Numbered from the stretch's first letter, positions 6,633 to 35,784 are shown. The stretch: DNA of 64,000 nucleotides from a virus (IMGVR_UViG_3300009709_000023:18862-82861); one strand, 5' to 3'. The notes: generated by a model not told the origin, from the letters alone. Translations and numbers: made by a program.

Positions 6633-7349
6633 TTAGCTTTCTTTTATTGTAACACATTCACAAGGCCAGCCTTGGCACTCAATACACCAATAATGACGCT
6701 TTGCTCTGTTTTTTGTACGCGTTAAAACTTGTAAATTAAATTCATTGTGTAAGCCACAAACTAACCCATCTTTGTGTTGCAAAGGAATAATATGATCCAC
6801 TTCATGTGGCTCCCCTGTTTTTTCTAAAAGTGCTTTAGATTCTTTGTAGAATTCTTCTATTACTTCTTCATCCGCCCAGTCAACAAAAGCGTTTAATTCT
6901 ACCGCCCGCCTCTTAGAATCTGCAAGAAGAAACCTCTCGGGGCACTCCTTCTTCATTCGTTCATAACTTTGTTTTTTTCTTATTCTAGCTTTTTCTTTGA
7001 AATCGGGATCATCTTTGTGTTCTTCATGGTACGCCCTGGATCTCTCTGCTGCTCTAGCCCTGTATTCCGGGTCTAATCCATATTTATTATGAAATCGAGC
7101 TAATTTCTTAGCATTAATATTTGCCCTGTACATTTCATCTGTACATAATTTTTCAAGGTGTTTTTCGTACGCTATCTGGGCTTTACGTTTGTATTCTTCA
7201 GTATCTTTATGGGTTTCGTAATGACGCTGAGAAGCAGCTTTTTTTCTAGCTCGATAAGAAGGATCATCTTTTAATCTCTCATAACGTTTATGATCTTTTT
7301 CTTTTTGTTTAGCTTTACGTTCTTCTTCGGTTAAAACTTTACGTGGCAT
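6633..7349 (-). CDS. HNH homing endonuclease
   Basis: HEVDHIIPLQ...VCGLHNEFNLQVLTRTKNRAK; Lys/Arg-rich N-terminal region. Confidence 0.85.
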   Translation of the reverse strand: MPRKVLTEEERKAKQKEKDHKRYERLKDDPSYRARKKAASQRHYETHKDTEEYKRKAQIAYEKHLEKLCTDEMYRANINAKKLARFHNKYGLDPEYRARAAERSRAYHEEHKDDPDFKEKARIRKKQSYERMKKECPERFLLADSKRRAVELNAFVDWADEEVIEEFYKESKALLEKTGEPHEVDHIIPLQHKDGLVCGLHNEFNLQVLTRTKNRAKRHYWCIECQGWPCECVTIKES

Positions 7350-7403: not shown

Positions 7404-8201
7404 TCAACAACCCGGTGGAACCTGGTTATTCCCACTCGCAATATTCACAACTTGGCCAGAACTAGTAGTAGCAACGCTTGTTGCATTGCCAGAAACACCA
7501 CCAGCCGCCGAACCATTAGCAAGCACATACATTTTTCCATACAAAATATTACTGACGTATTGGTTTGGCGTCATACCGGTAGCTCTGTCATATCCCCCCA
7601 AGCCTAGATAAGCGCCAATTGAGGCTGCTATTTTGGAGCTAAAGTATTGACTAGAGTTACCATAGTGCCATCCACTTGAAGTTTGACTAATATGTTTGTA
7701 TTTACTTTCAAGAATAGTCAGGCCCGCCAAAATTTGGTTAGAAGCGGTAGCCTGCCCTTGATACAAAGTAGTTAAGTCTGTTCCAGGTGGAACACAAAGA
7801 ATACTGGCAATATCAGGTCTAGAGATTTGAATTTCAGTTTGGCCATTTTTTTTAGATGCCCCCTGAATAAAATTCCATCCCATACACTGCAAAAGTCCAT
7901 AGGCTTGGAGGCCCTGAGCAACCAACGATTTTTGTGTGGGAGTGCCCGTTGCCAAAAGATTTTGAATCGGTTGACTATTCCAGTAATCCTTAGCCCCAGA
8001 CGAAACAGACGTAGAAATAACAGGGCCAATAGCATTGTAGCTAAAAGAACTTTCCTGTTGGACCATAGCCATGACAATGTTAGCAATATTGCTTTCATTG
8101 TTTAAAGTAGAAGTGAAATATTGACCAAGCAGATTTGTTATAATTGTCTTAACATTCTGCTTGGTAGTGGTCGTAGTACTTGATCCGGCAACCGACGCCA
8201 T
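7404..8201 (-). CDS. Lysozyme-fold / SLT-like transglycosylase, probably virion-associated
   Basis: AMVQQESSF (catalytic Glu motif) and AYGLLQ; start overlaps the stop of the beta' C-terminal gene. Confidence 0.65.
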   Translation of the reverse strand: MASVAGSSTTTTTKQNVKTIITNLLGQYFTSTLNNESNIANIVMAMVQQESSFSYNAIGPVISTSVSSGAKDYWNSQPIQNLLATGTPTQKSLVAQGLQAYGLLQCMGWNFIQGASKKNGQTEIQISRPDIASILCVPPGTDLTTLYQGQATASNQILAGLTILESKYKHISQTSSGWHYGNSSQYFSSKIAASIGAYLGLGGYDRATGMTPNQYVSNILYGKMYVLANGSAAGGVSGNATSVATTSSGQVVNIASGNNQVPPGC

Positions 8202-10027
8202 TAGTAAGCCCCGTCTTCACCTTCACCGAATTCTCGTCCCAGAATGTACGATGGAATTGGATCAGTGCTATGAATGTCGGACGAATCACCGACTGCGGCA
8301 GAATCTGTAATTGTGTCTTTAAGTCGGGTGAAAGCAAGGCGTGAAACCCAGTTTGAATCATAATTCTTCGCTGACTCCAGGCCGGGAACGATCGGAGTAA
8401 CTTTGAGACCAGAGCCAGTCACTTTCACTGTCTTGACACCTTTCTCTTCCAAGTCTTCAATGTGGTTAGCATCCAGCAAAGTACCGGGCGTTAATTCGTG
8501 GACACCTTTAGCTAAAACAGTACCTTCAGCATGGCTAACAGGAATTTCTTTAGTGCCAGTACGAAGAAATTTCTCGGCTTCTCCAACACTTACAACTTGG
8601 CCTGGCATAAAACCAGTTTGTCCTGGATCTTCGACTTGAACATATTTCAGCAGATTCTTGGCAACGATTTCAAAGTGACGGGGATCCAAGCCGCCACCAT
8701 AAATTTCACGAAGTTCGTTAGCCATATAACGACGGCCAGCCCCTAAACCCCTGAGCTGAACAAGCTTACGGGGGTTAATAACGCCTGATGACAAAGCTTG
8801 TCCTGTTTTAACTTCATCTCCAACGTCAACATTTAAAGTCTGAGCTTGAGGGACAAAGTGAGAAGTATCTTTCACATAAACATTATGGTCACCCAGCGCT
8901 GTTGTAGAGATATGAGTAATCTTCCCATTATGTTGAGCAAGCGTTGCCTCATCCTGGAAGTTTTCAGTCGGGTTACGCATCAAGTTAGAAGCTTGTTCGT
9001 ATGCATTGCCTTTACGTTCACCCACTGACGCTTTGTGCTTTGTTGACAGAATGCTCTGTGTCAAAACTTCCGAAATAGATTGGGCCGCAATGACCCCGAC
9101 GTTTTCACCAATCTCAGGAGGGAGACCGTTTCCCATCAAACCGAAACATTTAACACAAACGCCATCATGAGCTTCACAAGTCATAGCGCTCCGGCATTTG
9201 ATAAATTTGCGTCCGGATTGAGCACATTCTTTATAGTACTGATCAGTGATGAGCCTGTTAGTTTCAGCTTCATAACGACCAATGATTGATTTCTTATCTG
9301 AAACGGGGAGATTGATACCATTTTTGGTCCCGCAATCAACAATGGTTACAACTTCATGATACACAGTGGGGCCAAGTCGTTTAAACAGTGCTCCTGGCTT
9401 TGACGTAGCAAGCTGTGTCAATACGCTATTGCCACGGCCCATATAGGAAAGTGCCGTTTGCTCTGCAGGGGTCATACCCTCTGCGAATGAATGTTTAATA
9501 ACAACAGGAACAATCTCACCGCTCAAATTATTTGAAATTAAAGGGGTAGCAGTACCTGCAGCCAATTGCTTTGGATTACCCCGTGCTCCAGTTTGAGCCA
9601 TCTTTGCAGCAACAGAGCCTTTACCAACGAGATAAGCAAGGTTCTGCTTTTGTACTTTGGATTCGTATTCGGTGATGAGAGACAACAGTTCTTTATCTTT
9701 GTCGACTTGAGATTTGTTAGTATTTAGAATTTTTTGAGCTTTGAAATCAAATTCGTCGATCAGTGTAGTACGTTCTTCAGAATCATTGATATAATCAGAT
9801 AAAGGCGTAGTTGCACCAATATCTGTAGCAACGTTAAAAAATTGTTTCGCTAAATCGTTAATGGTTTCGCCTGCGCCTGGCCCACCGTGTTTCAAAATCA
9901 TATTGACAAGGCTAGATACCCCACCTTTGTCTAGAGATTTATAGGGATCAAAGTGTGCCTTAGCGGCTTCAGTTGGAAGGGAATGCTTAATGAGCAAAGA
10001 CCCAGCAGTAGTGTATTTTTGTGCCAT
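8201..10027 (-). CDS. rpoC: RNA polymerase beta' subunit, C-terminal part
   Basis: TTAG start region, MAQTGARGN, bridge helix SFAEGMT...PGALFKRL, Zn site DCGT...RSAMTC...VCVKCFG, trigger loop GVIAAQSISEVLTQ...KH, HFEIVAKNL. Confidence 0.9.
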   Translation of the reverse strand: MAQKYTTAGSLLIKHSLPTEAAKAHFDPYKSLDKGGVSSLVNMILKHGGPGAGETINDLAKQFFNVATDIGATTPLSDYINDSEERTTLIDEFDFKAQKILNTNKSQVDKDKELLSLITEYESKVQKQNLAYLVGKGSVAAKMAQTGARGNPKQLAAGTATPLISNNLSGEIVPVVIKHSFAEGMTPAEQTALSYMGRGNSVLTQLATSKPGALFKRLGPTVYHEVVTIVDCGTKNGINLPVSDKKSIIGRYEAETNRLITDQYYKECAQSGRKFIKCRSAMTCEAHDGVCVKCFGLMGNGLPPEIGENVGVIAAQSISEVLTQSILSTKHKASVGERKGNAYEQASNLMRNPTENFQDEATLAQHNGKITHISTTALGDHNVYVKDTSHFVPQAQTLNVDVGDEVKTGQALSSGVINPRKLVQLRGLGAGRRYMANELREIYGGGLDPRHFEIVAKNLLKYVQVEDPGQTGFMPGQVVSVGEAEKFLRTGTKEIPVSHAEGTVLAKGVHELTPGTLLDANHIEDLEEKGVKTVKVTGSGLKVTPIVPGLESAKNYDSNWVSRLAFTRLKDTITDSAAVGDSSDIHSTDPIPSYILGREFGEGEDGAY

Positions 10028-10031
10028 GCAA

Positions 10032-10040
10032 GTATTTTAG
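10032..10040 (-). promoter_or_regulatory. CTAAAATAC motif, putative late/phage-specific promoter (also at 3911-3919, 23680-23688; TAAAATAC core at 26290-26297)
   Basis: The same TAAAATAC core lies 1-5 nt upstream of four minus-strand start codons. Confidence 0.55.
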
Positions 10041-10053
10041 ATCGGCATAGTTT

Positions 10054-10063
10054 TGGTATAAGT
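10054..10063 (+). promoter_or_regulatory. TGGTATAAG(T) motif, putative phage promoter (also 16988, 26363, 27367, 33155, 35324, 43128, 45827, 47705)
   Basis: Nine TGGTATAAG copies, all at or next to gene boundaries upstream of plus-strand gene blocks. Confidence 0.75.
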
Positions 10064-10097
10064 AAAGTAGAGAAGAACCCTATTTTAGGAGAATCCT

Positions 10098-10394
10098 ATG
10101 TTCTGTGCATTTCGTTGCCAATGGTTTGAAAAATCAGACGGAGTAGAACAAGCAGATGGTTTTTCCTATGCATTTCGAAGGGATGATTTGGAGCTTTGGA
10201 TTAAAACCCAAAGTAATCCAACATTCTCAGATGTGCTACAATACAGGGCTAGCAAAGTTGAGCTTGTTCGTATAACTTCTGAACTTGCTGAAAATATCTT
10301 TAGGCATCGAGTTTTTAATTGCGGTCTTGAAAATGGGGAAGCCCCTGATCTTGGACTGTTATCAGAATATAAGGCTTCCCTTGGCATCAACTAA
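10098..10394 (+). CDS. Hypothetical protein
   Basis: AGGAG RBS, first gene after the TGGTATAAGT motif. Confidence 0.6.
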   Translation: MFCAFRCQWFEKSDGVEQADGFSYAFRRDDLELWIKTQSNPTFSDVLQYRASKVELVRITSELAENIFRHRVFNCGLENGEAPDLGLLSEYKASLGIN

Positions 10395-10521
10395 CTTCAT
10401 CCCCGACATAATCACTAATCCTCTCACCAATTCCTCCGCCCCAACCCACCATTATACTTGGACTCGTGGGACCGGGTGGGGCGTTATTCCTGTAAACCCT
10501 TTTGATACAGAGAGAACTACC

Positions 10522-11976
10522 ATGGCGCAATCTACGTCTGCATCTGTCACCCCCGTTACTCCAGACCCGAATCGTCCGTATCGCCCGCCGTTGGTTGGAA
10601 CTCCTGACGTTACTATTCAGTACATCTCGGGTCAAATCCAACGAACCAGGGCATCTTCGGGTCAAGAAATTATAGTGCTTTTGACTCGCTTCCTTGAATT
10701 CGCAACGGCTAGGCCAACAGGCAGTATGACTTACTCCATGCTTGAACCTCCTCGTTGGCAGAATGCTGAAGAAGGATACCCTTTCGAATTGGTAATTTAT
10801 GGTAATAATCTACCGGCGGATTTAGCAAGCACTCAACAGGCACTTCGCCTCCTGATCAGCGGCTGTCCGGATATGATCTTTTCCAACACCATGGAAGGTC
10901 CGTCTGGAGAAAGCTCAATACCGAATATTTTCTTTACACCCGGTAGAGTCAAGTTCCTTCAAAACTTGGAGATTTTTGATACTCCATGTGGATTCGGTCT
11001 GAAGGGAAATTTCATGCTTAGGCGGTCGGCTACCAGGTATTACGCCTACCCTTTCAAGGTTCATATTGTTAAGTTATCAGACCAATCTTTGCAATTGTTT
11101 CACAGTCATATTGCGTTTAGTGGAGATCTGGAGAAGCTCATAGACAAAATGCTGGAGTACTGGGACCTAAAACTTGACAGAAGCATGATGGGGGCCGATT
11201 ATTCGTCTCTTTCTATGAACTATGATGGAGAAGATGTTTTTCTTACCCGTGGAAATTCTGTAATGAATTTTCTGCCCAACATTACTACTTCTATGTTTAG
11301 CGGCCTTTCGACAGAAGCGATTGTTAATTGTCTCAAAACCCTGAGGTTTTGCACGTCCGAGTCTTTGATTTACGCCCTGGGAAAGTTAGAACCAAACAAC
11401 CAACTACGTAAAGCAATTAGCACTCAGGTCAGTGGAAATACTGTACGTGGTGCTGACTATCACTATCCGTCCCCCCTAGATGAAGAAGCCAGACGAGAGG
11501 GGTTTAAAACATGGCTCGTTAGTTTGCTTCAGCAACGTTCCTTAGGCCCTCGTAATTTGCACGAGGATCCTGCCATGAAATGGGGCCTGGGGTATATCTC
11601 TGAATTGGAAAGGAGCAAGCAAACGGTCGGTGTCGTTGAAAACCGAATCAGTAACGCCGTCGGTAAAGAGGTATATAATAAGTTGGTAACACCGAAGTCC
11701 AAATTGGCGGTATTGGACGAGTACATCGCCCGTATCGAAGCTCAAGGTCTGGATTTCATGCACATCTCTGAAGGCCGGCTCGAACTTGATTTCATCGAGT
11801 TTGCTCAAGAAAAAGGCTTACCACTTCCTGATGAAGTCATAAACAAGGAAGAATTGGTTAGCAAACCTGAAGAGAAAGCTTCGATGCTACTCGTTGAAGC
11901 TGGAAGTAGCACTAAGTGTGATGTTAAGGATAACCCGGCTCCAATATGGGGTAAGGTTAAGGTAAGCGCCATTTAG
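10522..11976 (+). CDS. Large hypothetical protein (likely start 10522; track start 10285)
   Basis: Long ORF followed by a terminator; no recognisable motif. Confidence 0.65.
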   Translation: MAQSTSASVTPVTPDPNRPYRPPLVGTPDVTIQYISGQIQRTRASSGQEIIVLLTRFLEFATARPTGSMTYSMLEPPRWQNAEEGYPFELVIYGNNLPADLASTQQALRLLISGCPDMIFSNTMEGPSGESSIPNIFFTPGRVKFLQNLEIFDTPCGFGLKGNFMLRRSATRYYAYPFKVHIVKLSDQSLQLFHSHIAFSGDLEKLIDKMLEYWDLKLDRSMMGADYSSLSMNYDGEDVFLTRGNSVMNFLPNITTSMFSGLSTEAIVNCLKTLRFCTSESLIYALGKLEPNNQLRKAISTQVSGNTVRGADYHYPSPLDEEARREGFKTWLVSLLQQRSLGPRNLHEDPAMKWGLGYISELERSKQTVGVVENRISNAVGKEVYNKLVTPKSKLAVLDEYIARIEAQGLDFMHISEGRLELDFIEFAQEKGLPLPDEVINKEELVSKPEEKASMLLVEAGSSTKCDVKDNPAPIWGKVKVSAI

Positions 11977-12001
11977 GAAGAGCTGTCTGAAGTAAAATAA
12001 G

Positions 12002-12037
12002 AGCTAGGCCTGATGTATTTACGGCCTAGCTTTTTTT
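12002..12037 (+). terminator. Intrinsic terminator
   Basis: AGCTAGGCC / GGCCTAGCT stem followed by a T-run. Confidence 0.75.
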
Positions 12038-12054
12038 AGTTTTTCTCACTCACG

Positions 12055-13965
12055 ATGCCCTACGAAACTGCCCATCCGGTTGAACATGAACATCAGCTCA
12101 AACCTGGGACTGAAATTCTGTTTACCCGTCAACGCCATGAAGCTGAGCGTATGGGCTTACATTGGGATTACCGACTGGTAGTTGGGAATTTAGCTTACAG
12201 TTGGGCTACTAAAAAACCAATGCCAGAGCCAGGTAAAAGCATCGTTCTCTTTGAGCAACCGATTCATGACAAAGACTATGCCCTGAGTCCAAAAGTTGTT
12301 ATCCCTACTGGTAGTTATGGTGCTGGTGTTACTTACCTTGACTTTGTACGCAAAGCAAAGATCGGGGACAGTAGCACACAAAAACAAATGACAATCGTCA
12401 CCCATGACGGTGAGAAGTATTTGCTAAAGCATATTCCTGATACTCAATGGGGAGAGAAAGCTTGGTTGTTCCGTAATCTTGGGACAACAGGTAATAAGTA
12501 TTTGGAAAAGGCTGCTAAGCAAACACAGACTCAAAAACAAACTCCTCTTCAACCGCATCAAATTCGTGCGCTTGAAAAGTTGGAAGATGAGGGTGGTCTT
12601 GTAATGAATCACAGCACGGGCTCAGGGAAAACCCGAGTTATGCTTGAGGCTATTCGCCGCGCCCAACAAAAAGATAAAAACGCAAGAGTATTTATGGCTA
12701 CGCCAGCTTCATTACTACATAACGTAGATAAAGAAATTAAAAAGCATGGCATCCCCATTGATAAAAAGCGACTCGACTTATATTCATTCCAGAAAGCGAC
12801 TAGAAATGCAGATCAGCTTCGTAAAAATAAATACGCATTAGCAGTCGTGGACGAAGCCCATGGTCTCCGCAATGAAAGCACAAAGCGAACCCAAGAACTT
12901 CGAGACATTATAGAAGGATCTGATCAACGTCTTTTAGCTACTGCAACGTCTAACTACAATGCTATTAGCGATATGTCAACTTTGGTTAACATTGCCGCTG
13001 CTGATAAAGTGTTGCCTGAATCTAAGCGAGATATGTATGATAAATATGTGGAGACCTACAAAAAGCCTCGGGGACTCATCAGCACCATTTTACGTCATCA
13101 AGCCGACGAAGGCCAGCGGTTGAGAAACAAAAAGAAACTTCAGAGTGTCCTGGGTAAATACGTTGATTATTATGATACTAAGGACTCCGCTAATGGCCGT
13201 AGCCATTTCCCTAAAAAGACAGAGGAAACAATTGAAACGGAAATGTCTCCTGAACAAATGAAGTATTACAAATACGTTGAAGGAGACTTGCCTCTTTTAC
13301 TTAAATTTAAAATTCGTCACAATCTTCCATTGGATAAAAAGGAAAAGGCAAGCTTAAATAGTTTCTCCACAGGGGTGCGCCAAGCCTCCAATTCGTATAG
13401 GCATTTGCATCAGCATGGGGAAGATCTGCCGTACACACCAAAAATTGAAGCCGCTACTAAAAAACTTCAAGAAGCGATTAAGGCTAACCCACGCCATAAA
13501 GCCTTGGTGTATTCTAATTATCTTGACGCCGGTTTGAACGAATACTCCAACAAGCTTAATAAACTTGGGATTAAGCACGGTAAATACACAGGGGAACTTT
13601 CCAAGGAAGAGAAGCATAAACTAGTCGAAGATTACAACAAAGGTAAGCTTCCAGTGATGCTCATTTCTTCAAGTGGTTCTGAAGGTCTTGACACGAAAGG
13701 TACAAGGCAAATTCAAATTCTTGAACCGCATTTTAACAAGAGCAAAATTAAGCAGGTAATTGGTCGTGGAGTTCGTTACAATTCCCATGAGCATTTACCA
13801 GAAAAAGAAAGAGAGGTTCATGTTGAACATTATCTTTCAACATATCCTAAGAGTCATTTCGGTAAAACGCCTTATAGTATTGATAAATATTTGAGTGAAA
13901 ATGCTGAAGACAAAGACGAACTATTTAACGAAGTAAACGGACTAATGCGTGAGAACAATGAATAA
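12055..13965 (+). CDS. LigD-type 3'-phosphoesterase (PE) domain fused to an SF2 (SNF2-like) helicase
   Basis: N-terminal RHEAERMGLHWDYRL...SWATKK...IHDKDYA...IPTGSYGAG matches the LigD PE signature. Linker NKYLEKAA. Then HSTGSGKT, DEAH, ATAT, SEGLD, QVIGRGVR. Confidence 0.8.
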   Translation: MPYETAHPVEHEHQLKPGTEILFTRQRHEAERMGLHWDYRLVVGNLAYSWATKKPMPEPGKSIVLFEQPIHDKDYALSPKVVIPTGSYGAGVTYLDFVRKAKIGDSSTQKQMTIVTHDGEKYLLKHIPDTQWGEKAWLFRNLGTTGNKYLEKAAKQTQTQKQTPLQPHQIRALEKLEDEGGLVMNHSTGSGKTRVMLEAIRRAQQKDKNARVFMATPASLLHNVDKEIKKHGIPIDKKRLDLYSFQKATRNADQLRKNKYALAVVDEAHGLRNESTKRTQELRDIIEGSDQRLLATATSNYNAISDMSTLVNIAAADKVLPESKRDMYDKYVETYKKPRGLISTILRHQADEGQRLRNKKKLQSVLGKYVDYYDTKDSANGRSHFPKKTEETIETEMSPEQMKYYKYVEGDLPLLLKFKIRHNLPLDKKEKASLNSFSTGVRQASNSYRHLHQHGEDLPYTPKIEAATKKLQEAIKANPRHKALVYSNYLDAGLNEYSNKLNKLGIKHGKYTGELSKEEKHKLVEDYNKGKLPVMLISSSGSEGLDTKGTRQIQILEPHFNKSKIKQVIGRGVRYNSHEHLPEKEREVHVEHYLSTYPKSHFGKTPYSIDKYLSENAEDKDELFNEVNGLMRENNE

Positions 13966-14941
13966 GTATTTAGAAAAAATTGCAGAAGATGATGAAGAAA
14001 AAAAGCCGGTGAATGCCTTTGGAAAACTTGGGATAGGTTACTTAGGGGCTTCTCTTGGACTCGGTGCGAGTGTCGTTACAAATAAACCTTTGACAAGGGA
14101 TATCATACATCAAAGTAACAACGAGCATGGTATTTCTGACCATGGTACTGTCAAGAAATTTATGCGAGATAATAACTTTAATAAGCATAATATGACGTTG
14201 AATCATCGTATGCATATTACGAAAAAACTTCCTGAGAGTTTCCAGTATCTTCATCAAAATCACCATAGTCCCGCAGAGCTTACTGATCCCCATACAGGCA
14301 GACATATTCTGTTAGGTATGAGGGATAAAAAAACCGGAAAACTTCGTAATTTAGATGTTGCAATGCATGAACTTGGTCATGCTAAAGATTTCCGCACGCA
14401 TACTGAACTAAAGCATAAAGCACAGATTATTGGAAATACTAAAGGTAATCATGCAGCTATGTTGGGAGTCGCTGCAATGTCCAACGAAGACACTAGACAC
14501 TACGCTCCTCTTGTCGCTGCCGTTCCGGGTGCTATTGTCCTTCGTTCGGAAGCTGCGGCAAATTATCATGCTTATCATGGTATTAAAGCTCACAAAGGAG
14601 CTAAGGCGGCAAATAAATTTTTAACTCGTATGGTTCCTAAACAAATGGCAGGGTATGTTGCAGGAACTCTCGGCCCTGCGGCTGGTTTATATGGTGCCAA
14701 TAAACTTATTGACTATGTTCATAAAAAGCGTGGTATTGATAAGCAAGCTGAAATGTCCGACATGGAAGCCGCTCGTGAATTTCATCATGCTGAAGAAGAT
14801 GATGTCAAGAAATACGAAGAGGCTAAAAAGACGGCAAAAAATCCTAAGCTATTAAAGGCTATTAACTATGCCCTTCCAGAAGAAAAGATCCATGCTCGTT
14901 TGTTTGGTGAAGCATTGAAAGACGAAGAAAAAAGTGAATAA
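13958..14941 (+). CDS. Zinc metallopeptidase-like protein with NKYLEKIA tag (likely start 13958)
   Basis: HELGH motif with downstream SEAAAN (third-ligand Glu candidate); Gly-rich hydrophobic segments. Confidence 0.65.
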   Translation: MNKYLEKIAEDDEEKKPVNAFGKLGIGYLGASLGLGASVVTNKPLTRDIIHQSNNEHGISDHGTVKKFMRDNNFNKHNMTLNHRMHITKKLPESFQYLHQNHHSPAELTDPHTGRHILLGMRDKKTGKLRNLDVAMHELGHAKDFRTHTELKHKAQIIGNTKGNHAAMLGVAAMSNEDTRHYAPLVAAVPGAIVLRSEAAANYHAYHGIKAHKGAKAANKFLTRMVPKQMAGYVAGTLGPAAGLYGANKLIDYVHKKRGIDKQAEMSDMEAAREFHHAEEDDVKKYEEAKKTAKNPKLLKAINYALPEEKIHARLFGEALKDEEKSE

Positions 14942-15098
14942 GTATCTTGAAAAGCTTGCAGTAAGACTCCATTTATACGTTCATTCTCAAGATGAAACTA
15001 AGAAGAGGTGGGTGGAGGAAGGAAAGTCTGTTCCAGAAGGATATGTAAAGGCTGGTCCTACTTTCTATCGCCGCAAAGGTCAAGGTAAAAAGAAATGA
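14934..15098 (+). CDS. 54-aa basic protein with NKYLEKLA tag (not in the ORF track)
   Basis: GTG-start hand translation MNKYLEKLAVRLHLYVHSQDETKKRWVEEGKSVPEGYVKAGPTFYRRKGQGKKK; overlaps both neighbours. Confidence 0.7.
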   Translation: MNKYLEKLAVRLHLYVHSQDETKKRWVEEGKSVPEGYVKAGPTFYRRKGQGKKK

Positions 15099-16012
15099 AT
15101 TTGATTTCCAGAAAAGAAGCTAAAGCGCAAGGATTAAAATTTTATTTCACTGGTAAACCATGCAAGCACCGGCATGTTTGTCCTAGACGCGTTTCTAGCA
15201 AGTGCTGTACAGGCTGTGAAAAACAGTTTTATGATAAAAACAAAACTGAAATACTAAAGTCACGAGTTGAATATTCTAAACGCAATAAAAATAAAATTTC
15301 TGAATACCAAAAGAAATATCGAGAAAACAACAAAAATAGAACTTCCGAATATCTAACTGACTATTTTCAAAAAAATAAAGAAGAAATTTACCTTCAGCGT
15401 CGTCAATATATAGAAAGAAATAAAGCCTATTTTTTTAACTGGCATTCTGAATATAGAGAAAAACATAGAGACATATTCAATGTTCGTTCATCGATAAGAA
15501 GGGCTATTAAATTACAGGCAATACCTACTTGGGCAAATAAAACAGAAATACATGAATTTTATAAAGATGCAGTTCGTATAAGTTATGAAACTGGTGTTAA
15601 ATACAATGTTGATCATATTGTCCCATTACAATCAGATTTTGTTTGTGGATTACACTGGGAAGGAAATTTGCAAATTCTAACAAAAACTGAAAATCTCTCA
15701 AAAAGCAATAGACATTGGCCTGACATGCCAGATACTTCTGACCCAGAAATTAAACACTTAGTAAAACAATTTAAAAAAATGAATAAATATTTATCAAAAA
15801 TAGCAGAAGCATATGATGTTGTAGAAGGTAATAACGGGGCGTCTATTGGTCGAAAAGGCGGCTCTACTCTAGATGGTAAAGACCAAAAAACAACTCCTGC
15901 CTCTGTACGTAACAGAATGCTCGAAGCTGGGAGGGCCAGTGATCCGGACCAACCTGTAAATATGGGTTCAGTGACTGGTGGCTATAGCGATCCAGGCATT
16001 CTGGGCTCCTAA
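15095..16012 (+). CDS. HNH endonuclease read in frame into a 77-aa NKYLSKIA-tagged protein (internal ATG 15779)
   Basis: FYFTGKPCKHRH...C..C; YNVDHIVPLQSDFVCGLHWEGN; WPDMPDTSDPE; then MNKYLSKIAE. Confidence 0.8.
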   Translation: MNLISRKEAKAQGLKFYFTGKPCKHRHVCPRRVSSKCCTGCEKQFYDKNKTEILKSRVEYSKRNKNKISEYQKKYRENNKNRTSEYLTDYFQKNKEEIYLQRRQYIERNKAYFFNWHSEYREKHRDIFNVRSSIRRAIKLQAIPTWANKTEIHEFYKDAVRISYETGVKYNVDHIVPLQSDFVCGLHWEGNLQILTKTENLSKSNRHWPDMPDTSDPEIKHLVKQFKKMNKYLSKIAEAYDVVEGNNGASIGRKGGSTLDGKDQKTTPASVRNRMLEAGRASDPDQPVNMGSVTGGYSDPGILGS

Positions 16013-16022
16013 AAATAAGATC

Positions 16023-16970
16023 ATGAACAAATACTTGACCAAATTGGCTAGTGACGGAATTATCAAAACCGAACATGGTGAAAAAATTCCTTATGAGCGC
16101 CACAAATATGTGGAGAAAGATTGGTCACATCTAGAAAATCCTGTCGGGTCTAATAAATTCGATGGGGCTCATTTCTTTTTAGTTGTTCAACCAGACGGAA
16201 CATTTAAGTATTATTCCCGTAGAGAGAGCGTTAAGGGGCATCATCCTGAACGTTCTGCTCAAATTCCTCATCTCAACGCCAAGCCTTTGCCTGAATACGC
16301 TGGTGATGTGCTCTCTACAGAGTTGATCCATACTGGCTTTTATAAGAACAAGAAAGAATCCCACCCAAAAGTATCAGGGATTCTGAATTCTCTCAAGGAC
16401 CGGGCTATTGCAACTCAAAAAGAAACTGGTCCCGTCCGTGCCGTCCTCCTAGATGTCAAGGATCATAACCTTCCAACTTTCGGATCGAAGATTGATTACC
16501 TAAAAAAGTTTGAACAAGCATATGGTAATTCAGACGTCCTTTACACCCCTAAATTTGTTGAGGGCAAAGAAAACATCAACAAGTACCTTCAGCAAGTTTC
16601 GTCTAAAGGCAGCGAAGGTATCATCGTAACAGATAAGAATATTCCTGAATCAGAGAACGTTCGTTACAAAGTTAAAAACTACAATACTTATAACTTGAAG
16701 GTTATCGGGTTTCAACAAGAAGTAGACATTCATGGTAATCTTAAAAAGTCCATGGGTGCCCTCCTCCTGGCCGACGCGACTGGACGGTTCGTTGGCAAAG
16801 TCGGAACAGGATTTGATCGTAAGACACGGATAGAATCCTGGAATAATCAACCCCTTTGGATTGGTCGGCAAATCCAAGTTAAAGCATATCCACCTAGTAA
16901 ACATATGGGTCATATCCGTTTTCCTATTTATAACGGTGAACCTGATGGTCAACTTGACACAATAATTTAG
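16023..16970 (+). CDS. ATP-dependent DNA ligase with NKYLTKLAS tag (likely start 16023)
   Basis: KFDG adenylation motif, EGIIV, VKNY, OB-fold GKVGTGFD and RFPIY. Confidence 0.9.
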   Translation: MNKYLTKLASDGIIKTEHGEKIPYERHKYVEKDWSHLENPVGSNKFDGAHFFLVVQPDGTFKYYSRRESVKGHHPERSAQIPHLNAKPLPEYAGDVLSTELIHTGFYKNKKESHPKVSGILNSLKDRAIATQKETGPVRAVLLDVKDHNLPTFGSKIDYLKKFEQAYGNSDVLYTPKFVEGKENINKYLQQVSSKGSEGIIVTDKNIPESENVRYKVKNYNTYNLKVIGFQQEVDIHGNLKKSMGALLLADATGRFVGKVGTGFDRKTRIESWNNQPLWIGRQIQVKAYPPSKHMGHIRFPIYNGEPDGQLDTII

Positions 16971-17052
16971 TCCACCGTTGTTCAATTTGGTATAAGAAAA
17001 GTATAGAGAGAGGATCTATTCTCTACTAACCCTTAATCAACCAGGAGCAATA

Positions 17053-17196
17053 ATGGAATCCAAGACGTTTAACAAAGTAGCTACTGGAGTCGTCGTTGCA
17101 ATGACGGCTGCATTGTCGGCTGCATGGTTTTTGGTGTTGGCTAATGCTGTCGCAGTTGGCTACACCGTCGGACTCAAGGACAAGAGCGATGTTTAA
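17053..17196 (+). CDS. 47-aa membrane peptide (not in the track)
   Basis: AGGAG RBS; MESKTFNKVATGVVVAMTAALSAAWFLVLANAVAVGYTVG... Confidence 0.6.
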   Translation: MESKTFNKVATGVVVAMTAALSAAWFLVLANAVAVGYTVGLKDKSDV

Positions 17197-17347
17197 TAAC
17201 ATCAAAACCTCACCCGCTGTTTCACAAGCTCTCGGCATTGGATTAGGTGCATTGAGTTTTGCACTTATGGTCGGGTTCGGTTGGGCTGCCGCAACGGTCA
17301 TCGGGGTCTCCATGCAAGCGGGCCTGGATGGCAAATTTACCAAGTAA
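17189..17347 (+). CDS. Small membrane protein (likely start 17189)
   Basis: Overlaps the previous stop; hydrophobic ALGIGLGALSFALMVGFGW segment. Confidence 0.55.
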   Translation: MFNNIKTSPAVSQALGIGLGALSFALMVGFGWAAATVIGVSMQAGLDGKFTK

Positions 17348-17357
17348 GGAGCAAACC

Positions 17358-17543
17358 ATGCTGGATGGAAACAAGATCATCATCACTCCCATCGAAGGCG
17401 GTGGATTTGAGGTAAGCGAAGAAGCAGAACCGATTACCGTGGAAGATATTGCAGCCGGCATTGGTTCAGTTGTTGTAACGTGCGTTATGGTCCTAGCCGT
17501 GTGCTGGATGATGGATCGGGTTATTAGTTCGGTTACCCGTTAA
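17358..17543 (+). CDS. Small membrane protein (likely start 17358)
   Basis: AAGGAG RBS; C-terminal hydrophobic helix. Confidence 0.6.
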   Translation: MLDGNKIIITPIEGGGFEVSEEAEPITVEDIAAGIGSVVVTCVMVLAVCWMMDRVISSVTR

Positions 17544-17605
17544 GAGTATGGACGGGCCGTGGGTAGCGGCCCTTACTAAATCCCAAATAATGGAGTTTTA
17601 TAACC

Positions 17606-18205
17606 ATGGGCAAGCTGAGCAATACGACGTCTGCAGTATTCGAATTTATTCACGATCAAACCGTTGAACATGCCAACGGGAATCGCCTGCATGAGTTCGA
17701 TATCGTGAAACGGTTTACACCGATAATCGGTCACGCAAATACTATACACGTTTTGGAACGACTCGCAAAGAAGCATCATGTCTTGAAGTCGACTTCCACT
17801 CAGAAAACGGCACGAGGCCGGGCGACGCATTATTATCGTGCTAATCCGGAAAATTTGTATTATGACACCGGAGTTGGACGAAAGCCGGCGCAGGAAGTAT
17901 TGAAAAAGTTGGAAAAACTCCGGGATGTTCCCCTCGGTAGGGATAAGGTAGCAGTCGAGGAAGAACAAGATTCTCAAATTCCGGATGTTTCAGAATCTCC
18001 AGCCAATACCGTACAGACCAGCGGTATTGTGGAGTCCTTGGATCAGGCAAAAGTTTTGAGCTTGGTTCAAGGTATCAGTGAGCAGAATGGCAGAGATTCT
18101 GTCTCACTGGCGTTAGACCTCGGTAACACCCGTACCGAGATAGTAGACGTTGATACGGCATACAAGCTGTACCTCGGTCTAAAAGCCGTCTTCGGACCTA
18201 AGTAA
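17606..18205 (+). CDS. Hypothetical protein, possible N-terminal winged-helix DNA-binding domain
   Basis: GGAG RBS; helical N-terminus followed by a GRATHYY wing-like strand. Confidence 0.5.
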   Translation: MGKLSNTTSAVFEFIHDQTVEHANGNRLHEFDIVKRFTPIIGHANTIHVLERLAKKHHVLKSTSTQKTARGRATHYYRANPENLYYDTGVGRKPAQEVLKKLEKLRDVPLGRDKVAVEEEQDSQIPDVSESPANTVQTSGIVESLDQAKVLSLVQGISEQNGRDSVSLALDLGNTRTEIVDVDTAYKLYLGLKAVFGPK

Positions 18206-18555
18206 CACGGTCTGTCGGCTAGACCCCCCTTCGCCTCAATCCGGAGATTGGTTGAGGAACCAAAGGACAAGTTGAAAAGGTCTCTCAATAAGTCAGAAGG
18301 GTTGTAGTTGACATTCTTAAAGGCGTGGTAAGCACTGCTTAAACCCTCCGGGGGCCGGAAGGAGGCAGTGCTGCCAATGCTACCTAAAACATTAAGCATG
18401 GGATGCTTAACTACTTCGGGTTCGTTGAAAAATGAATACAGTAACAAATACTGGTGTTCAAACAACAAGTGCTTCGGTGACGAAGCTAGAAGTATCAACC
18501 AAGGTTAAGTAAGGACCAACCCTCACTTAATAAACCCGCCGCAAGGCGGGGATTG
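18206..18555 (+). ncRNA. Candidate structured noncoding RNA
   Basis: About 350 nt between convergent genes with several hairpins, including GCTTCG-GTGA-CGAAGC and CCCGCC-GCAA-GGCGGG (GNRA loops on +). Confidence 0.4.
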
Positions 18556-18566
18556 TTTATATTGAA

Positions 18567-19718
18567 TTAAAGCTTTGCGTGTTCTTCAATAATCAAAGGA
18601 GTGTTTTCTTTGATGTGACCATTCTTTAGAGCTTTGAGTGCATCAAGCTCAGTTTTGAAAGTAACAGGTTTTTGTTCAGAATCTGGTTCAGTCAAATATG
18701 AACTGCCCACAATTGCTTCGTGGCCCGGAGCCATCATTGAAATACCGATACCTTTACGATAATCATACGCATGAGCTTCTGGCAATAACTTTTCACGAGC
18801 TTCATTAATTGCCTCGGGAGTCATAGGCGTGTGAATAGACAAAGCGTCACCATCAAAGTCACCGGAATATAAAGCAAGGTGAAGAGGATTAATACCTAAA
18901 GTTTTGCCTTCGACAGGAACTGGGTAGTGAGCAGTAACGTTTGTACGCATTAATGTAGGCGCACGATTCAGAATTACTGGAATCTGCTTAATTAATTTAT
19001 TAAAAGAATTAACTGCAGCAGGTCCACGACTCTCAATTTCTTTTTTAGCTCGAATCAGATCGAAACCTTGCTGAACTAAATCACGCATAATGTGGTACTC
19101 GTACAGAGTCCACAACATGTCTTTGGGAACAGCTACTTCATTGAAACCAAGATTAGCTTCCGCTCGAATCGTCGCACGGCCTGAGAAGTCTTGTTTACGA
19201 CTCAGAAGTTTGGATTGGAAGTAACCGCCTTTTGGGCCGTACTTACCAGCGATTTGAGCAATGAAACCATTTAAATCTTTACCACGAGCGTATCCACTGA
19301 TTGCATCGCCGAGCCCAAAAATAGCTTTGGCACCATCGTATAGCGCTTTGCGTTCTGGAACAAGAGCGTGGGGTTCCAAGGTGTGCCCTAGCTCTTTCAG
19401 ATTATTATTCACCGACATATGATCTCGGTAGAGATAGTTTACATCGGCAAATTCGATACGGTTACCCCCTGTTTGAACCGGAGGCCGGACAATCGGAGGA
19501 ACAACTGGCATGTGCCTAAGAATGAATGCATGCTCGGGTTTAATACCAAGCTTGCGTAACCCCGCCAGGTATTTCAGACGTTTAACAATGCCATCTTTTT
19601 TCGATTTGGATTTAGTGGATTGGTATTCTTTTTGAAGGTCTTTAATTTGCTTTTCGACATCGATGTCCCCAAGCATAGATTCAAAAGCTAATCCACCAAC
19701 TTTAACTTCGTCTGTCAT
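18567..19718 (-). CDS. rpoC: RNA polymerase beta' subunit, catalytic middle part
   Basis: MPVVPPIVRP, LLSRKQDFSGRATI, LNRAPTL, catalytic GDFDGD. Confidence 0.92.
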   Translation of the reverse strand: MTDEVKVGGLAFESMLGDIDVEKQIKDLQKEYQSTKSKSKKDGIVKRLKYLAGLRKLGIKPEHAFILRHMPVVPPIVRPPVQTGGNRIEFADVNYLYRDHMSVNNNLKELGHTLEPHALVPERKALYDGAKAIFGLGDAISGYARGKDLNGFIAQIAGKYGPKGGYFQSKLLSRKQDFSGRATIRAEANLGFNEVAVPKDMLWTLYEYHIMRDLVQQGFDLIRAKKEIESRGPAAVNSFNKLIKQIPVILNRAPTLMRTNVTAHYPVPVEGKTLGINPLHLALYSGDFDGDALSIHTPMTPEAINEAREKLLPEAHAYDYRKGIGISMMAPGHEAIVGSSYLTEPDSEQKPVTFKTELDALKALKNGHIKENTPLIIEEHAKL

Positions 19719-19954
19719 TAACTATAAACCTCATCAGACAAGTTAGGAGTTGTGTTAGCAGGATTCATGCTATCCGTAATAAACCTTGTCGAACATGTAA
19801 TAGGATGACGGACCGGAATCATTGGTTGTTGAGTGTAGAATGTGTGAACTCCTGGCAAATCGATTGTTGCCATCATATTTACTCTCATCACTCCACTGAT
19901 ATCATCAGTATGCATAACAAAGCGATTGGGGTTAAAAAGTGGGCTAGAGATCAT
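19718..19954 (-). CDS. 78-aa hypothetical protein between RNAP genes
   Basis: Fills the gap between the beta and beta'-middle genes with tight stop/start spacing. Confidence 0.55.
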   Translation of the reverse strand: MISSPLFNPNRFVMHTDDISGVMRVNMMATIDLPGVHTFYTQQPMIPVRHPITCSTRFITDSMNPANTTPNLSDEVYS

Positions 19955-19956
19955 AG

Positions 19957-22900
19957 TTATTCCAAGTGACTGACGTCCAGAGATTCTTCTCCGCCCATCA
20001 GATGATTATCTTCTTCTTCATCCGGCTCATCTTCAATTTCTGTAGAAGCAGCAAGATTAAGAGTTTTAACTAGTTTACCTGATTTAGTATCGACTAGATG
20101 GTATGTACTACCTTTGGCTTTTTTTACGCCCATCGCGCCCGATGTAATCCCATTGAACTCATTCTTGTTTAAACCAAGAAGAGTACGGATTGGCCGTTCG
20201 AAACTAGGATTGGCGATTGGTTCATATAAGGTATAATGAGACCAACGTTGGCCACGAACACCGCCAGTAATAGAGTTATCAAACATACCACCTTTAGATG
20301 GTTCAAGGCCACGTGGAGTTAACATCGTAGAGTCTTTGATTTCACCATTACTCATGCCAACAACTTCATCATCAGTTAAAGGGGCAGCAGTAATTTTACC
20401 ATCTTGCATTTTAGCGTTAATGCCGGAACCCTTCAGGTAGTCAAAGAACTTCTGCGTTGCAAAAGTCATCTTAGGTTTAGGCAGAGGCTGCCCCATGCGG
20501 AATTTTGCCCAGTAATCGGAATTCTCTTCTGATTTAAGCGTTGCAATTTCCCGAAGATTCTTACGGGCGTTAGAACCAAGTAAGCCAAGTACTTCCATGT
20601 AGCCAACAGCTTTCGAGCCCTCTTCACCACCTTTTGTCGGTTGGAGAACATTATCGTATGAACCTGTATTACGGGCTGACCAGTTTTGATCGGTTGTTTT
20701 ATATAGTTTCAAAAAGTACTGCGGACCAGTCAAGATTTTGCCAAGATTCTTATTTGTAGTTGGATCAACCATTTCTTCAGAATCTTCCAAGCCATGAGCC
20801 GCAAGTTCATTTTTCATATCCTGAATATTATTTTTTTTACTGAAGTTATGCAGATAATACGGTTTCCCAGTTTTCTGAGCAATCTTTGCTGCTGCAGTCT
20901 CCATAAGCTGCCCCAGGTTAATACGAGAAGTAACTGAGGCTGGATTCAAAAGAATATCAGCAGGCTTACCAGACGCTACATTGTAAGGCATCTTATCGTC
21001 AGGGAGAATCAAGGATACAATACCTTTGTTACCATGAAGACCAGTCAGTTTATCACCTACTTCAAGCGGTTTAACAGAGCGAAGAATAATACGGTAGTCT
21101 TTACCTTCGGTGTGAGTATCAACAACCTCTCCGTTCTCATCATGAGTCCAATATTCGACTACACACCGGTAAGGGGAAACCAATGTTTTGTGTAAACGAC
21201 CGAGGATCAAATCTTCAGCACTTGGTTCACGTTTTTCAAGAACAACATAAACAGGATCCCCATGATGCAAAATAGCACCGACTTTGGCAAAACCTTTATC
21301 ATCCAGGTTATCAAGCTGTGCCCGAGAAAATCGGTTAGGGAATAGAGATCTAACTTGAGCTTTCTTCATGATTACACCGTCTTGGACAGCGTAGTCAACC
21401 TTGTATGCGTGATGACTTTTAAGACCATCAGCACAAGATTGAGAAATAACTAAACCGTCCTCATGGTTATAGCCCCGATATGGCATATAAGCAACATTAA
21501 GGTTTTTACCAAGAGAGAGAACGCCATTTTTCGTGTAGTTGGAATCCAAAAGATCTTGTCCTGCCTTAACTGTATCCCCTTCTTTCACTAGAGGTTCAGC
21601 AAGATCCAGGAAGCCTTTAGCATTGAACGGTAAGTTACGAACAACTTCATGTTTGTGGACTTTGCCATTCTCATCTTTGATATGAATTTGATTTGGGGTA
21701 ACTTTGGTTACCGTACCATTAGTAGGAGACAAAGGAGTAATAATTTTCCCAACCCAACGTACATAAGGAAGTCCGGCCTTGTTTACAGTCTGAACAAGAG
21801 GCTGTTCACGATCAACTAAGGACAGTGCTTGGGTCAGTGCCTTTGACGCCATGGAGAGGCGGCCAGGGTGATTACTATTGATGAAGGGAACCATATTCGT
21901 CGTAATTGTATACAACGAAGTTGCATCATTTAACCAATAATCGACATCTTGTCGTGGGACCATTTTGAAATGACCTTTGACTTGAGCATGGACTATTTTG
22001 TCGTTTTCCTGATTTGGAAATCCGATGGTGTGAGACATCATTTCACCAACGCTTAACCACATACCTTTACCGGTTTTATCAACGACACGAGCGTAGAGAT
22101 TACCTTCTTTATCACGACCTGACGATAAAGTAAAACGTTGATCAATACCAGCACTTCCGGATTCAGGAGTACGGTTAGGGTCGATAATACCCAGGTGAGA
22201 AGGGTCAATGTCACGAGCAGTAAGTGGCACACCTTCAGGCGATGCAATACCACCTTCATCAGGACCCATGACCGTGACCTTACCAACAGACTCAATACTT
22301 TCCAGAGGGTTAGTTTCCGAAAGCGTTGAAACGAGCGTAGATTGAAGCAAATAATTAGAAAGGAATTTATTGTAAGGCTTTGGAGCGATGACCGAACGAA
22401 GCTTTGGCTTTTCCTTATCCATTTTCTCCAATTGATAAGCAAGTTTAGAATTCAACTGCTTGACCATTTGGTGCTTCTCAAAACGTGTGTTGAGATAGTC
22501 CGGGAGACTCTGAACCTTTTTGAACTGGAGAGAATCTCGGTTATCCTCTGGACGTTTACCAGAGTGTGTATCAGCTAGATTCTTCATAGCTAATAACAAA
22601 GTTTCGCCTGTGACATGGGTGAAATCTTTACCCAATGTAATATTGGTTGTTTGGGGAGCCAATGTAGAATTCTGCAATGCTTGTTTGAGTTCTACAATCA
22701 CTTCCTCCGGGGAAGGGTTTGGCTTTTGCAATGACCTATTAACAAGTCGAGTATACAAAGACTGAAGAATTTTATCTTCCTTGCCTTTCGTTGCCGCTAC
22801 GTTCGCTTCCCAAAGAGCGGGAGAAAAATACTTTTCGGCTTCTTTGGGCCCAATGCCAAATACTTTGGTCAGAAGGGGGGCAACTGGGACATAAGACGAC

Positions 22901-23403
22901 TTGATATTGAGGTTGAATAACAACTTCTCGGGATCAAGAGTAATGTAAAAACTTTGGCCTTTAGCCGTGTTGAAGTGAGATTCGAGTACGCCAGTTGGAC
23001 GTCGACGTGTGTAAACGCCCGGCCGGAGCTGAAGCATGTTTGAAACGTTATAGTTATTGCCTTTATACACAAGGGTATGTTTGCCGGTATACGAAAAAGA
23101 ATCCATTAATGCGAAGTTTTTTTCCTCATCTACCAATTTGCCGGTAGCTTTATCGTAAAGTCTCAAGTCACCTCGAATAGGGTACGTCAAACTCTTTGAA
23201 CGAAGAATAGCGTCTTTTTCATCAAGCTGACTGAAATGCTTCTCGTCAGGGTGAACATTGGTAAGTTCAAGCCGATAGTTTTTGGTTTCAATCGGGAATT
23301 GTTTCTGAAGGCCTTCGACAAGGGCCTCATCCTTTTTCGCATTCAGAGAATCCGGAGATGTAAAAATAGGAGTAACATCCAGAGAATTTAACGGCTGTGG
23401 CAT
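19957..23403 (-). CDS. rpoB: RNA polymerase beta subunit fused to the beta' N-terminal segment
   Basis: TPESG, GYNHEDG, GDKLTGLHGNKG, NPASVTSRINLGQ, GPQYFLKL, ARNTGSY..QPTKGG, GYMEV; tail GGMFDNSITGG...WSHYTLYEPIANP resembles the beta' N-terminus. Confidence 0.92.
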   Translation of the reverse strand: MPQPLNSLDVTPIFTSPDSLNAKKDEALVEGLQKQFPIETKNYRLELTNVHPDEKHFSQLDEKDAILRSKSLTYPIRGDLRLYDKATGKLVDEEKNFALMDSFSYTGKHTLVYKGNNYNVSNMLQLRPGVYTRRRPTGVLESHFNTAKGQSFYITLDPEKLLFNLNIKSSYVPVAPLLTKVFGIGPKEAEKYFSPALWEANVAATKGKEDKILQSLYTRLVNRSLQKPNPSPEEVIVELKQALQNSTLAPQTTNITLGKDFTHVTGETLLLAMKNLADTHSGKRPEDNRDSLQFKKVQSLPDYLNTRFEKHQMVKQLNSKLAYQLEKMDKEKPKLRSVIAPKPYNKFLSNYLLQSTLVSTLSETNPLESIESVGKVTVMGPDEGGIASPEGVPLTARDIDPSHLGIIDPNRTPESGSAGIDQRFTLSSGRDKEGNLYARVVDKTGKGMWLSVGEMMSHTIGFPNQENDKIVHAQVKGHFKMVPRQDVDYWLNDATSLYTITTNMVPFINSNHPGRLSMASKALTQALSLVDREQPLVQTVNKAGLPYVRWVGKIITPLSPTNGTVTKVTPNQIHIKDENGKVHKHEVVRNLPFNAKGFLDLAEPLVKEGDTVKAGQDLLDSNYTKNGVLSLGKNLNVAYMPYRGYNHEDGLVISQSCADGLKSHHAYKVDYAVQDGVIMKKAQVRSLFPNRFSRAQLDNLDDKGFAKVGAILHHGDPVYVVLEKREPSAEDLILGRLHKTLVSPYRCVVEYWTHDENGEVVDTHTEGKDYRIILRSVKPLEVGDKLTGLHGNKGIVSLILPDDKMPYNVASGKPADILLNPASVTSRINLGQLMETAAAKIAQKTGKPYYLHNFSKKNNIQDMKNELAAHGLEDSEEMVDPTTNKNLGKILTGPQYFLKLYKTTDQNWSARNTGSYDNVLQPTKGGEEGSKAVGYMEVLGLLGSNARKNLREIATLKSEENSDYWAKFRMGQPLPKPKMTFATQKFFDYLKGSGINAKMQDGKITAAPLTDDEVVGMSNGEIKDSTMLTPRGLEPSKGGMFDNSITGGVRGQRWSHYTLYEPIANPSFERPIRTLLGLNKNEFNGITSGAMGVKKAKGSTYHLVDTKSGKLVKTLNLAASTEIEDEPDEEEDNHLMGGEESLDVSHLE

Positions 23404-23675
23404 TACCGGCTGACCTTTTCCATATACTTTATTACAACAAAATACTGATCCATGAATATATACTTATCCGTAGATAGGAGTACGATGCCATCATTACGTA
23501 TACCTCTTGTTTCTAAATCCGAAAGATCTGCTCGTTCAATATCGTCAGCTAGATTTGCTTTGAAATAACGTATGGCATATTTATTGACATCAAAATCTTC
23601 AGCAGTAGAAAAACTACCTACCGAAGGCATCATTGGAAGTTCTACTGCTTGGCTAAAAGGGTCTCGTGCGTTCAT
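23403..23675 (-). CDS. Hypothetical protein
   Basis: Stop overlaps the beta start; TAAAATAC motif 4 nt upstream. Confidence 0.6.
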   Translation of the reverse strand: MNARDPFSQAVELPMMPSVGSFSTAEDFDVNKYAIRYFKANLADDIERADLSDLETRGIRNDGIVLLSTDKYIFMDQYFVVIKYMEKVSR

Positions 23676-23684
23676 CTTTGTATT

Positions 23685-34627: not shown

Positions 34628-34669
34628 TCTCTGCTCTCTCGATGATCTCGCCCATCATCGAGTTTTCAG

Positions 34670-34700
34670 GGGCTGAGAAGTCTTCAGCCCTCTTTTTTTC
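34670..34700 (+). terminator. Intrinsic terminator
   Basis: GGGCTGA / TCAGCCC stem followed by a T-run. Confidence 0.65.
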
Positions 34701-34754
34701 GCTGTCTAAGTTAAGATTAAAATTTGGCCCTTTACATATGGAGGCATATACGTT

Positions 34755-35756: not shown

Positions 35757-35784
35757 CGGGCACTCGGGACTAGTTCCCGAGTTT

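Follow-up and report, generated by a model that had tools for sequence, protein, structure and literature searches.

Fused and further split: a bacterial-type phage RNA polymerase in one, two and three chains

Multisubunit RNA polymerases (RNAPs) are among the most conserved machines of all, and in cells the borders between their subunits hardly vary. Described phage enzymes include the phiKZ/AR9 type, the only one dealt with in reviews of jumbo-phage polymerases (PMC7598289, PMC7824862), and the mReC enzymes (Weinheimer & Aylward 2020, PMC7481178). The latter are listed in Supplementary Data 2 of that work as separate genes for beta (999-1487 amino acids, aa) and beta-prime (903-1303 aa); they were selected for the motif NADxDGD and for a length of at least 800 aa in each protein, and fused or split genes are not described. 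Closest to the locus considered here are the enzymes of Salmonella phage Arash (OQ632216; gp206 of 1525 aa, gp216 of 606 aa, sigma factors gp10 and gp196) and of Vibrio phages D69, D148 and D181. The Arash paper labels gp206 beta and gp216 beta-prime with no mention of a fusion, and reports gp206 as the virion protein with the most spectra, gp216 and the sigma factor gp10 also being abundant (PMC10585845). The present locus lies in a stretch of 64,000 nucleotides (nt) of viral DNA (IMGVR_UViG_3300009709_000023:18862-82861; hereafter the window), which comes from a viral contig of 82.9 kb in IMG/VR with an estimated completeness of 47%. The isolates just named are its nearest, at ~52% identity, and its polymerase is a further-split form of the big, hardly described family of fused phage RNAPs to which they belong.

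It is highly probable, in our judgement, that the window encodes the only RNAP core of an Arash-like phage of ~180 kb, and that this core is of the bacterial two-barrel type with redrawn chain boundaries, cut at beta-prime residue ~566 and later at ~175 (all beta-prime residue numbers are those of E. coli). Chain 1 (1148 aa; 19957-23403, minus strand, as are all RNAP genes here) carries the complete beta subunit, continued without a linker by beta-prime ~19-175, from which the zinc finger has been deleted. Chain 2 (383 aa; 18567-19718) carries the beta-prime middle, ~175-566, with the Mg-binding DFDGD, and chain 3 (608 aa; 8201-10027) the remainder of beta-prime from 567 onwards, including the bridge helix and trigger loop. 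Reading of the open reading frames (ORFs) in the window found the four minus-strand frames of 1148, 78, 383 and 608 aa as they were first described.

Residues 1 to ~1002 of chain 1 (20398-23403) contain the Pfam domains Rpb2_6 (PF00562; expect value, E, 3e-57) and Rpb2_3, and match bacterial beta chains in the PDB at E 1e-62 over residues 25-979. The alignment to bacterial beta spans nearly its whole length, ending at residue ~979-1015 of the ORF. When the pieces were aligned by MAFFT with E. coli RpoB and RpoC (NC_000913) and with relatives, the last, C-terminal helix of beta fell on residues 980-995, and beta-prime started at about residue 1003 (KITAAPLTDDE, equivalent to E. coli ~19-26), with no linker and with beta-prime residues 1-18 lost. 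In the beta-prime clamp segment that follows (20047-20397), a 32-column gap opens against E. coli beta-prime at the zinc-binding segment, and no Cys is present in residues 1000-1148. An earlier note on this DNA had proposed both the continuation of beta into a beta-prime N-terminus and the missing zinc-finger Cys; the alignment bears it out on both points, but moves the start of the segment upstream of the GGMFD at which the note had placed it.

The identity of this tail does not depend on one alignment, since three independent checks agree that it is the beta-prime N-terminus. A profile built from the tail has beta-prime residues 15-55 as its top 17 PDB matches (E 0.011); hhalign pairs the tail with E. 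coli beta-prime 1-200 at E 1.9e-4 and again opens the gap at the zinc finger; and in Arash gp206, a fused relative, residues 1022-1260 are covered without interruption by the Pfam domain Rpb1_1 (E 6.5e-7). For a fused IMG/VR relative, the corresponding region was modelled with AlphaFold (predicted local distance difference test, pLDDT, 84), and this model likewise matches beta-prime/gamma chains over ~550 columns at E 3e-32. The zinc-binding segment is reduced to 11-18 residues without Cys in 73 of 150 relatives, the other 77 not matching the flanking pattern. Beyond the clamp segment, chain 1 closes with an acidic tail (19960-20046), whose last 30 residues include 13 Asp/Glu and no Lys/Arg. 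Members of the core three-chain clade have this tail; fused relatives and two split loci, L033 and L019, lack it.

The stop of chain 1 (19957-19959) is followed by a small gene, orf78 (78 aa; 19718-19954), which lies exactly between chains 1 and 2 and whose own stop overlaps the start of the separate 383-aa ORF. Chain 2 is recognised by Rpb1_2, Rpb1_1 and PDB beta-prime chains (E 7e-51), matches E. coli beta-prime 177-515 (E 4.5e-48), and includes the clamp helices region and the catalytic motif SGDFDGD (residues 285-291; nt 18846-18866). The gene for chain 3 lies 8.5 kb downstream of that for chain 2. It is the C-terminal half of beta-prime without SI3 (Rpb1_5, E 2e-16; PDB beta-prime E 1e-42) and starts just before TTAG. 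The note's three pieces, with a catalytic middle after the 78-aa ORF and a C-terminal part ~8.5 kb away, are thus as it gave them.

The alignment to E. coli RpoB and RpoC, which the note had recommended for mapping the breakpoints, puts the first break at beta-prime ~175 and the second at 566/567. The model of the fused relative has 15 residues of coil at the first junction, with a strand on one side and a helix on the other. PDB alignments start at 454 in a full-length Thermus chain and at 163 in a deletion-construct chain (1l9u vs 2gho), which would place a Thermus-specific beta-prime domain of ~291 aa at or next to this junction; an extra domain at the same place argues that the loop is permissive. 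The first junction would be a surface loop of the clamp that tolerates inserted DNA. The second break lies before TTAG, as had been noticed, and by PDB alignment coordinates is ~20 residues upstream of the cyanobacterial break after TTxGR. To our knowledge, no cell cuts its RNA polymerase at these chain boundaries.

Several hallmarks of a two-barrel core can be found in the three chains, namely the Rpb2_6 barrel, the DxDGD loop and the C-terminal bridge/trigger module (Rpb1_2, Rpb1_5). Others are absent: the four-Cys beta-prime zinc-binding domain and genes for the alpha dimer and omega. Neither alpha (PF01000) nor omega (PF01192) was matched at E up to 1 in the contig, two complete relatives (184.9 and 182.6 kb), Arash or D69, whereas 14 of 14 control genomes came out positive, and the earlier failure to recognise either subunit extends beyond the window. 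A sigma-70-type factor was found in all five genomes tested, the window's being a protein of 259 aa with regions 2 and 4 (40553-41332, minus), and there is one beta gene per genome. In bacteria, sigma region 2 binds to the region that is carried here by chain 2. The three chains would be separate translation products that come together non-covalently in a core served by the phage's own sigma, and the ancestral covalent link of beta to beta-prime could explain why no alpha platform or omega gene was kept. The content of Arash virions makes packaging of the enzyme likely in the family, and by analogy the window's polymerase is probably carried in the virion, as in Arash.

The wider family was surveyed through 38 IMG/VR relatives, for which loci and open frames were read, and two isolates, Arash and D69. 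The same core occurs in three layouts: a single ORF (2044-2491 aa); two ORFs, with beta and beta-prime 1-566 in one (~1525 aa) and a ~608-aa piece in the other; and three ORFs, the loci with three being those 57-70% identical to the window. In the case of Arash gp206 and Vibrio D69_0261, a single ORF of 1525-1527 aa crosses the window's first break and the C-terminal piece of ~606 aa is a separate gene. The best 150 representatives at 50% identity include 98 of at least 1900 aa, 26 of 1400-1650 aa and only 4 of ~1100 aa. Stand-alone middle pieces are plentiful in the database, the best 120 being 366-401 aa long and 60-75% identical, and the same break is kept over a clade of more than 100 clusters at 90% identity. 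Two distant database proteins (P0178 and P0203; 1095-1096 aa, 35% identity) end exactly at split site 1 and may be independent cuts or truncated proteins; a scan of viral contigs for these two found no relative.

A tree of beta plus the middle piece, rooted on E. coli, can be used to order these forms. The three-ORF forms make up one clade (Shimodaira-Hasegawa-like approximate likelihood ratio test, SH-aLRT, 99), whose sister group consists of the Arash-like two-ORF forms, with the one-ORF forms in a basal position; the core three-ORF clade was retained with support of 97 after database sequences were added. Because the three-chain clade is nested among two-chain forms, the cut at ~175 appears to be derived. 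The family would have begun as, or early become, a single beta::beta-prime polypeptide, with a first cut at ~566 and a second at ~175 in the window's lineage, in a loop that tolerates inserts. The sequences indicate that the three-gene layout is the norm for a large uncultured clade, derived from a family in which one- and two-chain forms are common. The note had seen an unusual and possibly alpha-independent architecture. The fusion and the split stand, but not as a one-off, and alpha-independence is deduced from the absent genes.

Four considerations weigh against this account. A tree of the middle piece alone groups L033 and L019, two of the split forms, weakly with fused ones, and for this reason the cut at ~175 may have arisen anywhere from one to three times; the lack of an acidic tail in L033 and L019 is consistent with a separate origin of their cut. 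A single ancestral chain is likely, though the root sits on one long outgroup branch and the trees are quick ones. The Pfam models could have missed an alpha- or omega-like protein that is highly divergent. Finally, for the three-chain members assembly, activity and packaging are deduced from the genes.

A more ambitious version would have the window encode a working, virion-carried and sigma-dependent three-chain RNAP that needs neither alpha nor omega and whose clamp is built from three polypeptides. The acidic tail, and perhaps orf78, would be adaptations to the cut, acting for instance as a tether, or as a mimic of nucleic acid that governs clamp closure or silences the packaged enzyme, and the cut site would be a recurrent landing pad for mobile DNA, an IsrB-like element included. 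We entertain this full version only tentatively, as having a small chance of being correct in all its parts.

The two small genes beside chain 1 raise the related idea that one of them, orf78 or orf90, serves specifically as a fourth subunit or an assembly factor keeping the cut clamp in one piece, for which we see a slight chance. In the case of orf78, its shared NPNRFV motif, whose codons differ only at synonymous positions between homologues, marks it as a real gene. The gene fits closely between chains 1 and 2, its stop overlapping the start of chain 2, and nonsynonymous divergence (pN) of 0.40-0.48 against synonymous divergence (pS) of 0.83-0.87 suggests some purifying selection. Homologues of 33-35% identity occupy the same site in two other lineages, L008/L009 and L007/L023. 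Against such a role, just 3 lineages among the 12 IMG/VR split loci examined carry the gene, and the remainder have nothing or unrelated inserts at the site. Its absence from most members of the clade, the lack of any match to a Pfam or PHROG family and a very poor Atlas model (pLDDT 0.31), with uninformative structural neighbours, indicate that orf78 is probably an insert and not an obligatory subunit.

The other candidate, orf90 (23403-23675, minus), lies between the portal gene and beta, and its stop overlaps the beta start codon. Homologues are conserved upstream of beta in most relatives at no less than 49% identity, which speaks for such a role. Yet orf90 also occurs in the uncut two-chain phages, adjoins the portal gene, and shows no evident fold resembling omega or alpha. 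Its AlphaFold2 model (pLDDT 79), good in the core, has a beta-alpha-beta-beta core, a common small alpha/beta arrangement; Foldseek against the PDB gave nothing below E 0.1, and the best VIA-align match (Z 5.7) was to unrelated chains, with no RNAP subunit among the matches listed.

On present evidence, the reading frames indicate that the pieces are separate genes. A different reading would be that the break at 19718-19959 is only apparent, and that an intron, an intein, frameshifting or bypassing restores a chain of ~1525 aa as in Arash. Mobile elements do invade these genes, as LAGLIDADG inteins are present in beta of three relatives (L038, L041 and L043), and in Vibrio phages D181 and D148 the beta match overlies a homing endonuclease. 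However, the gap between chains 1 and 2 ranges from an overlap (L019) through 35 nt (L016) and 70 nt (L012) to 2.1 kb with three ORFs (L017) and 11.6 kb (G003), a spread incompatible with one splicing mechanism. Every middle piece in the split relatives starts with its own ATG, and the frame of orf78 relative to beta differs between the window and L008, which argues against programmed frameshifting. The termini at the break are short acidic or variable peptides and not intein blocks. Rfam at E up to 1 gave no match to an intron or noncoding RNA in 8000-24000, Rfam together with Pfam analysis of orf78 revealed no self-splicing element spanning the break, and the inserts in relatives are variable and unrelated. 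Rejoining of the chains is accordingly very unlikely.

Selection bears on the further proposal that the RNAP is decaying, the extra break having disabled it so that the phage relies on the host polymerase. The departure of SGDFDGD from the canonical NADFDGD and the loss of the zinc finger would fit such decay, but all three catalytic Asp are preserved, and loss of the zinc finger is shared family-wide, also by Arash, whose enzyme is abundantly made. Moreover, in the tail and middle pieces pN is 0.11-0.30 while pS is saturated at 0.73-0.98, from which both pieces appear to have been under purifying selection since the cut; indeed, sequence divergence indicates purifying selection on all pieces. 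With selection strong on both sides of a break that is maintained across so many clusters, decay is hardly credible. That the break is an assembly or sequencing artefact, as might be feared for one metagenomic contig of incomplete length, is already refuted by its presence in independent assemblies from many samples and carries next to no weight.

The contents of the cut differ from one relative to the next, so that the junction behaves as a landing site for variable or mobile DNA. In L018, split site 1 (L018:7618-8910) has a HEARO/omega-RNA-like match (RF02033; 33 bits, below the Rfam cut-off; E 1.3e-4, full model), directly followed by a 342-aa RRXRR/PLMP protein (PF14239, E 8e-33); by sequence, the two look like an IsrB/IscB-like RNA-guided element. 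L033 has two other ORFs at its split site, one of which (L033:7742) starts MENKYLVKIA. ORFs starting MNKYLxKIA also occur in the window between chains 2 and 3, at 13958, 15779 and 16023 (plus), and no RNAP chain carries this start. The contig G003, which holds locus L013, has its RNAP genes at 59196-62588, ~46436-47560 and 34562-36382, each ~10-11 kb apart on the same strand; its record is flagged for inverted terminal repeats and 52% completeness.

Chains 2 and 3 are separated by a block on the opposite strand (10285-18205, plus), which among relatives varies in size and content from 0 to ~11 kb. In the window it comprises an unassigned 563-aa ORF, a LigD-type phosphoesterase (LigD-PE) fused to an SNF2 helicase (12055-13965, plus), a 330-aa ORF, an HNH endonuclease, an ATP-dependent DNA ligase (15978-16970, plus) and a 199-aa ORF. 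HNH endonuclease paralogues sit around the RNAP genes at 23685-24401 (minus), 15095-16012 (plus) and 6633-7349 (minus), sharing the motif DHIxPL...VCGLH...NL...N (phrog_1081/26577/1035), and a fourth lies between the orf90 homologue and beta in L005; these are likely free-standing homing endonucleases. The inteins mentioned above are in frame in beta of distant one- or two-chain relatives, at L038:6415-7554 (with Intein_splicing), L041:7096-7974 and L043:6267-7277, and L045 has an in-frame insert of 334 aa that belongs to no family.

The transcription unit of beta, orf78 and the middle piece appears to end at a terminator-like, GC-rich hairpin followed by a T-run (18535-18550, minus). This hairpin opens a 361-nt flank 3' of the catalytic piece (18206-18566, minus) that folds far better than its shuffles (z = -6.3), overlaps a doubtful 143-aa ORF with a TTG start, and has no Rfam match. 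Sites fitting the sigma-70-type promoter consensus were not commoner than in shuffled sequence.

The family presents the same core as one, two or three chains, with beta tied to beta-prime and with no alpha, omega or clamp zinc finger, yet paired with a sigma factor. This can be viewed as a natural experiment on the minimal needs for assembling and starting a bacterial-type polymerase. A place on the clamp surface, a loop that is open to cuts or inserts, is revealed by the three-chain form, which could be useful for the engineering of split or tagged polymerases. Since the two-chain relative Arash grows on Salmonella, these questions are open to experiment. Care must also be taken with current annotations, which name chain 1 'beta' only and so hide the fusion.

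Literature searches found no description of the fusion or of this layout, and a phage group for which the split pattern is the described norm, named in the earlier note as something that would overturn its case, did not come to light; the pattern is the norm in the large uncultured clade. The phiKZ and AR9 RNAPs share with the window's enzyme that they are phage-encoded, have no alpha or omega and come in non-cellular pieces, with one set borne by the virion (PMC7598289, PMC7824862). They differ in a split beta, two enzyme sets and no sigma-70-family factor, where the window has one set and a sigma, and they are, as the note had said, far more diverged, giving short matches only. The closeness to mReC enzymes that it suggested was not upheld as stated. 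Both come from uncultured tailed phages and have readily alignable beta and beta-prime, but the mReC genes are separate, so the window's pattern is not the described mReC norm; moreover, the window's beta-prime pieces are of 383 and 608 aa and its motif reads SGDFDGD. Contig numbers of the family that were tried against the mReC supplementary tables gave no match, and a search for a Gp23-type capsid, run without a positive control, gave none either.

Among cellular systems, the divided beta-prime of cyanobacteria and plastids (gamma/RpoC1 plus RpoC2) is similar to the window's in being broken after the catalytic domain, in the same inter-domain region. The cyanobacterial break comes ~20 residues later, beta is separate, and alpha and omega are present. 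Fused rpoB-rpoC genes are reportedly found in Helicobacter and Wolbachia (Zakharova et al. 1998; Dailidiene et al. 2007). There the beta C-terminus is joined to the beta-prime N-terminus, as in the window, and both ends lie together in the clamp; unlike the window's enzyme, they are cellular, with a whole beta-prime including its zinc finger, the use of alpha2 and omega, and no further split. Genes in pieces are also reported to have been made in T4-like phages by mobile endonuclease genes, in the split nrdA of Aeromonas phage Aeh1 (Friedrich et al. 2007) and likewise in T4 genes 39/60. In those cases too, the gene of an essential enzyme is interrupted where a break is tolerated and mobile DNA is housed, and the pieces still cooperate, whereas in the window the target is an RNA polymerase and the insert, orf78, is not a recognisable endonuclease. 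The most similar system is that of the Arash-type phages. These have in common with the window the direct junction of beta to beta-prime, the deletion of the zinc finger, a second break before TTxG, the gene order portal, orf90, beta, and a sigma of their own with no alpha or omega gene, and gp216 is 52% identical to the 608-aa ORF over its full length. The difference lies in the first chain: in the Arash type (about 1450-1530 aa) it runs on through DFDGD, and in the window it stops at the cut at ~175, with an acidic tail at its end and orf78 as the next gene.

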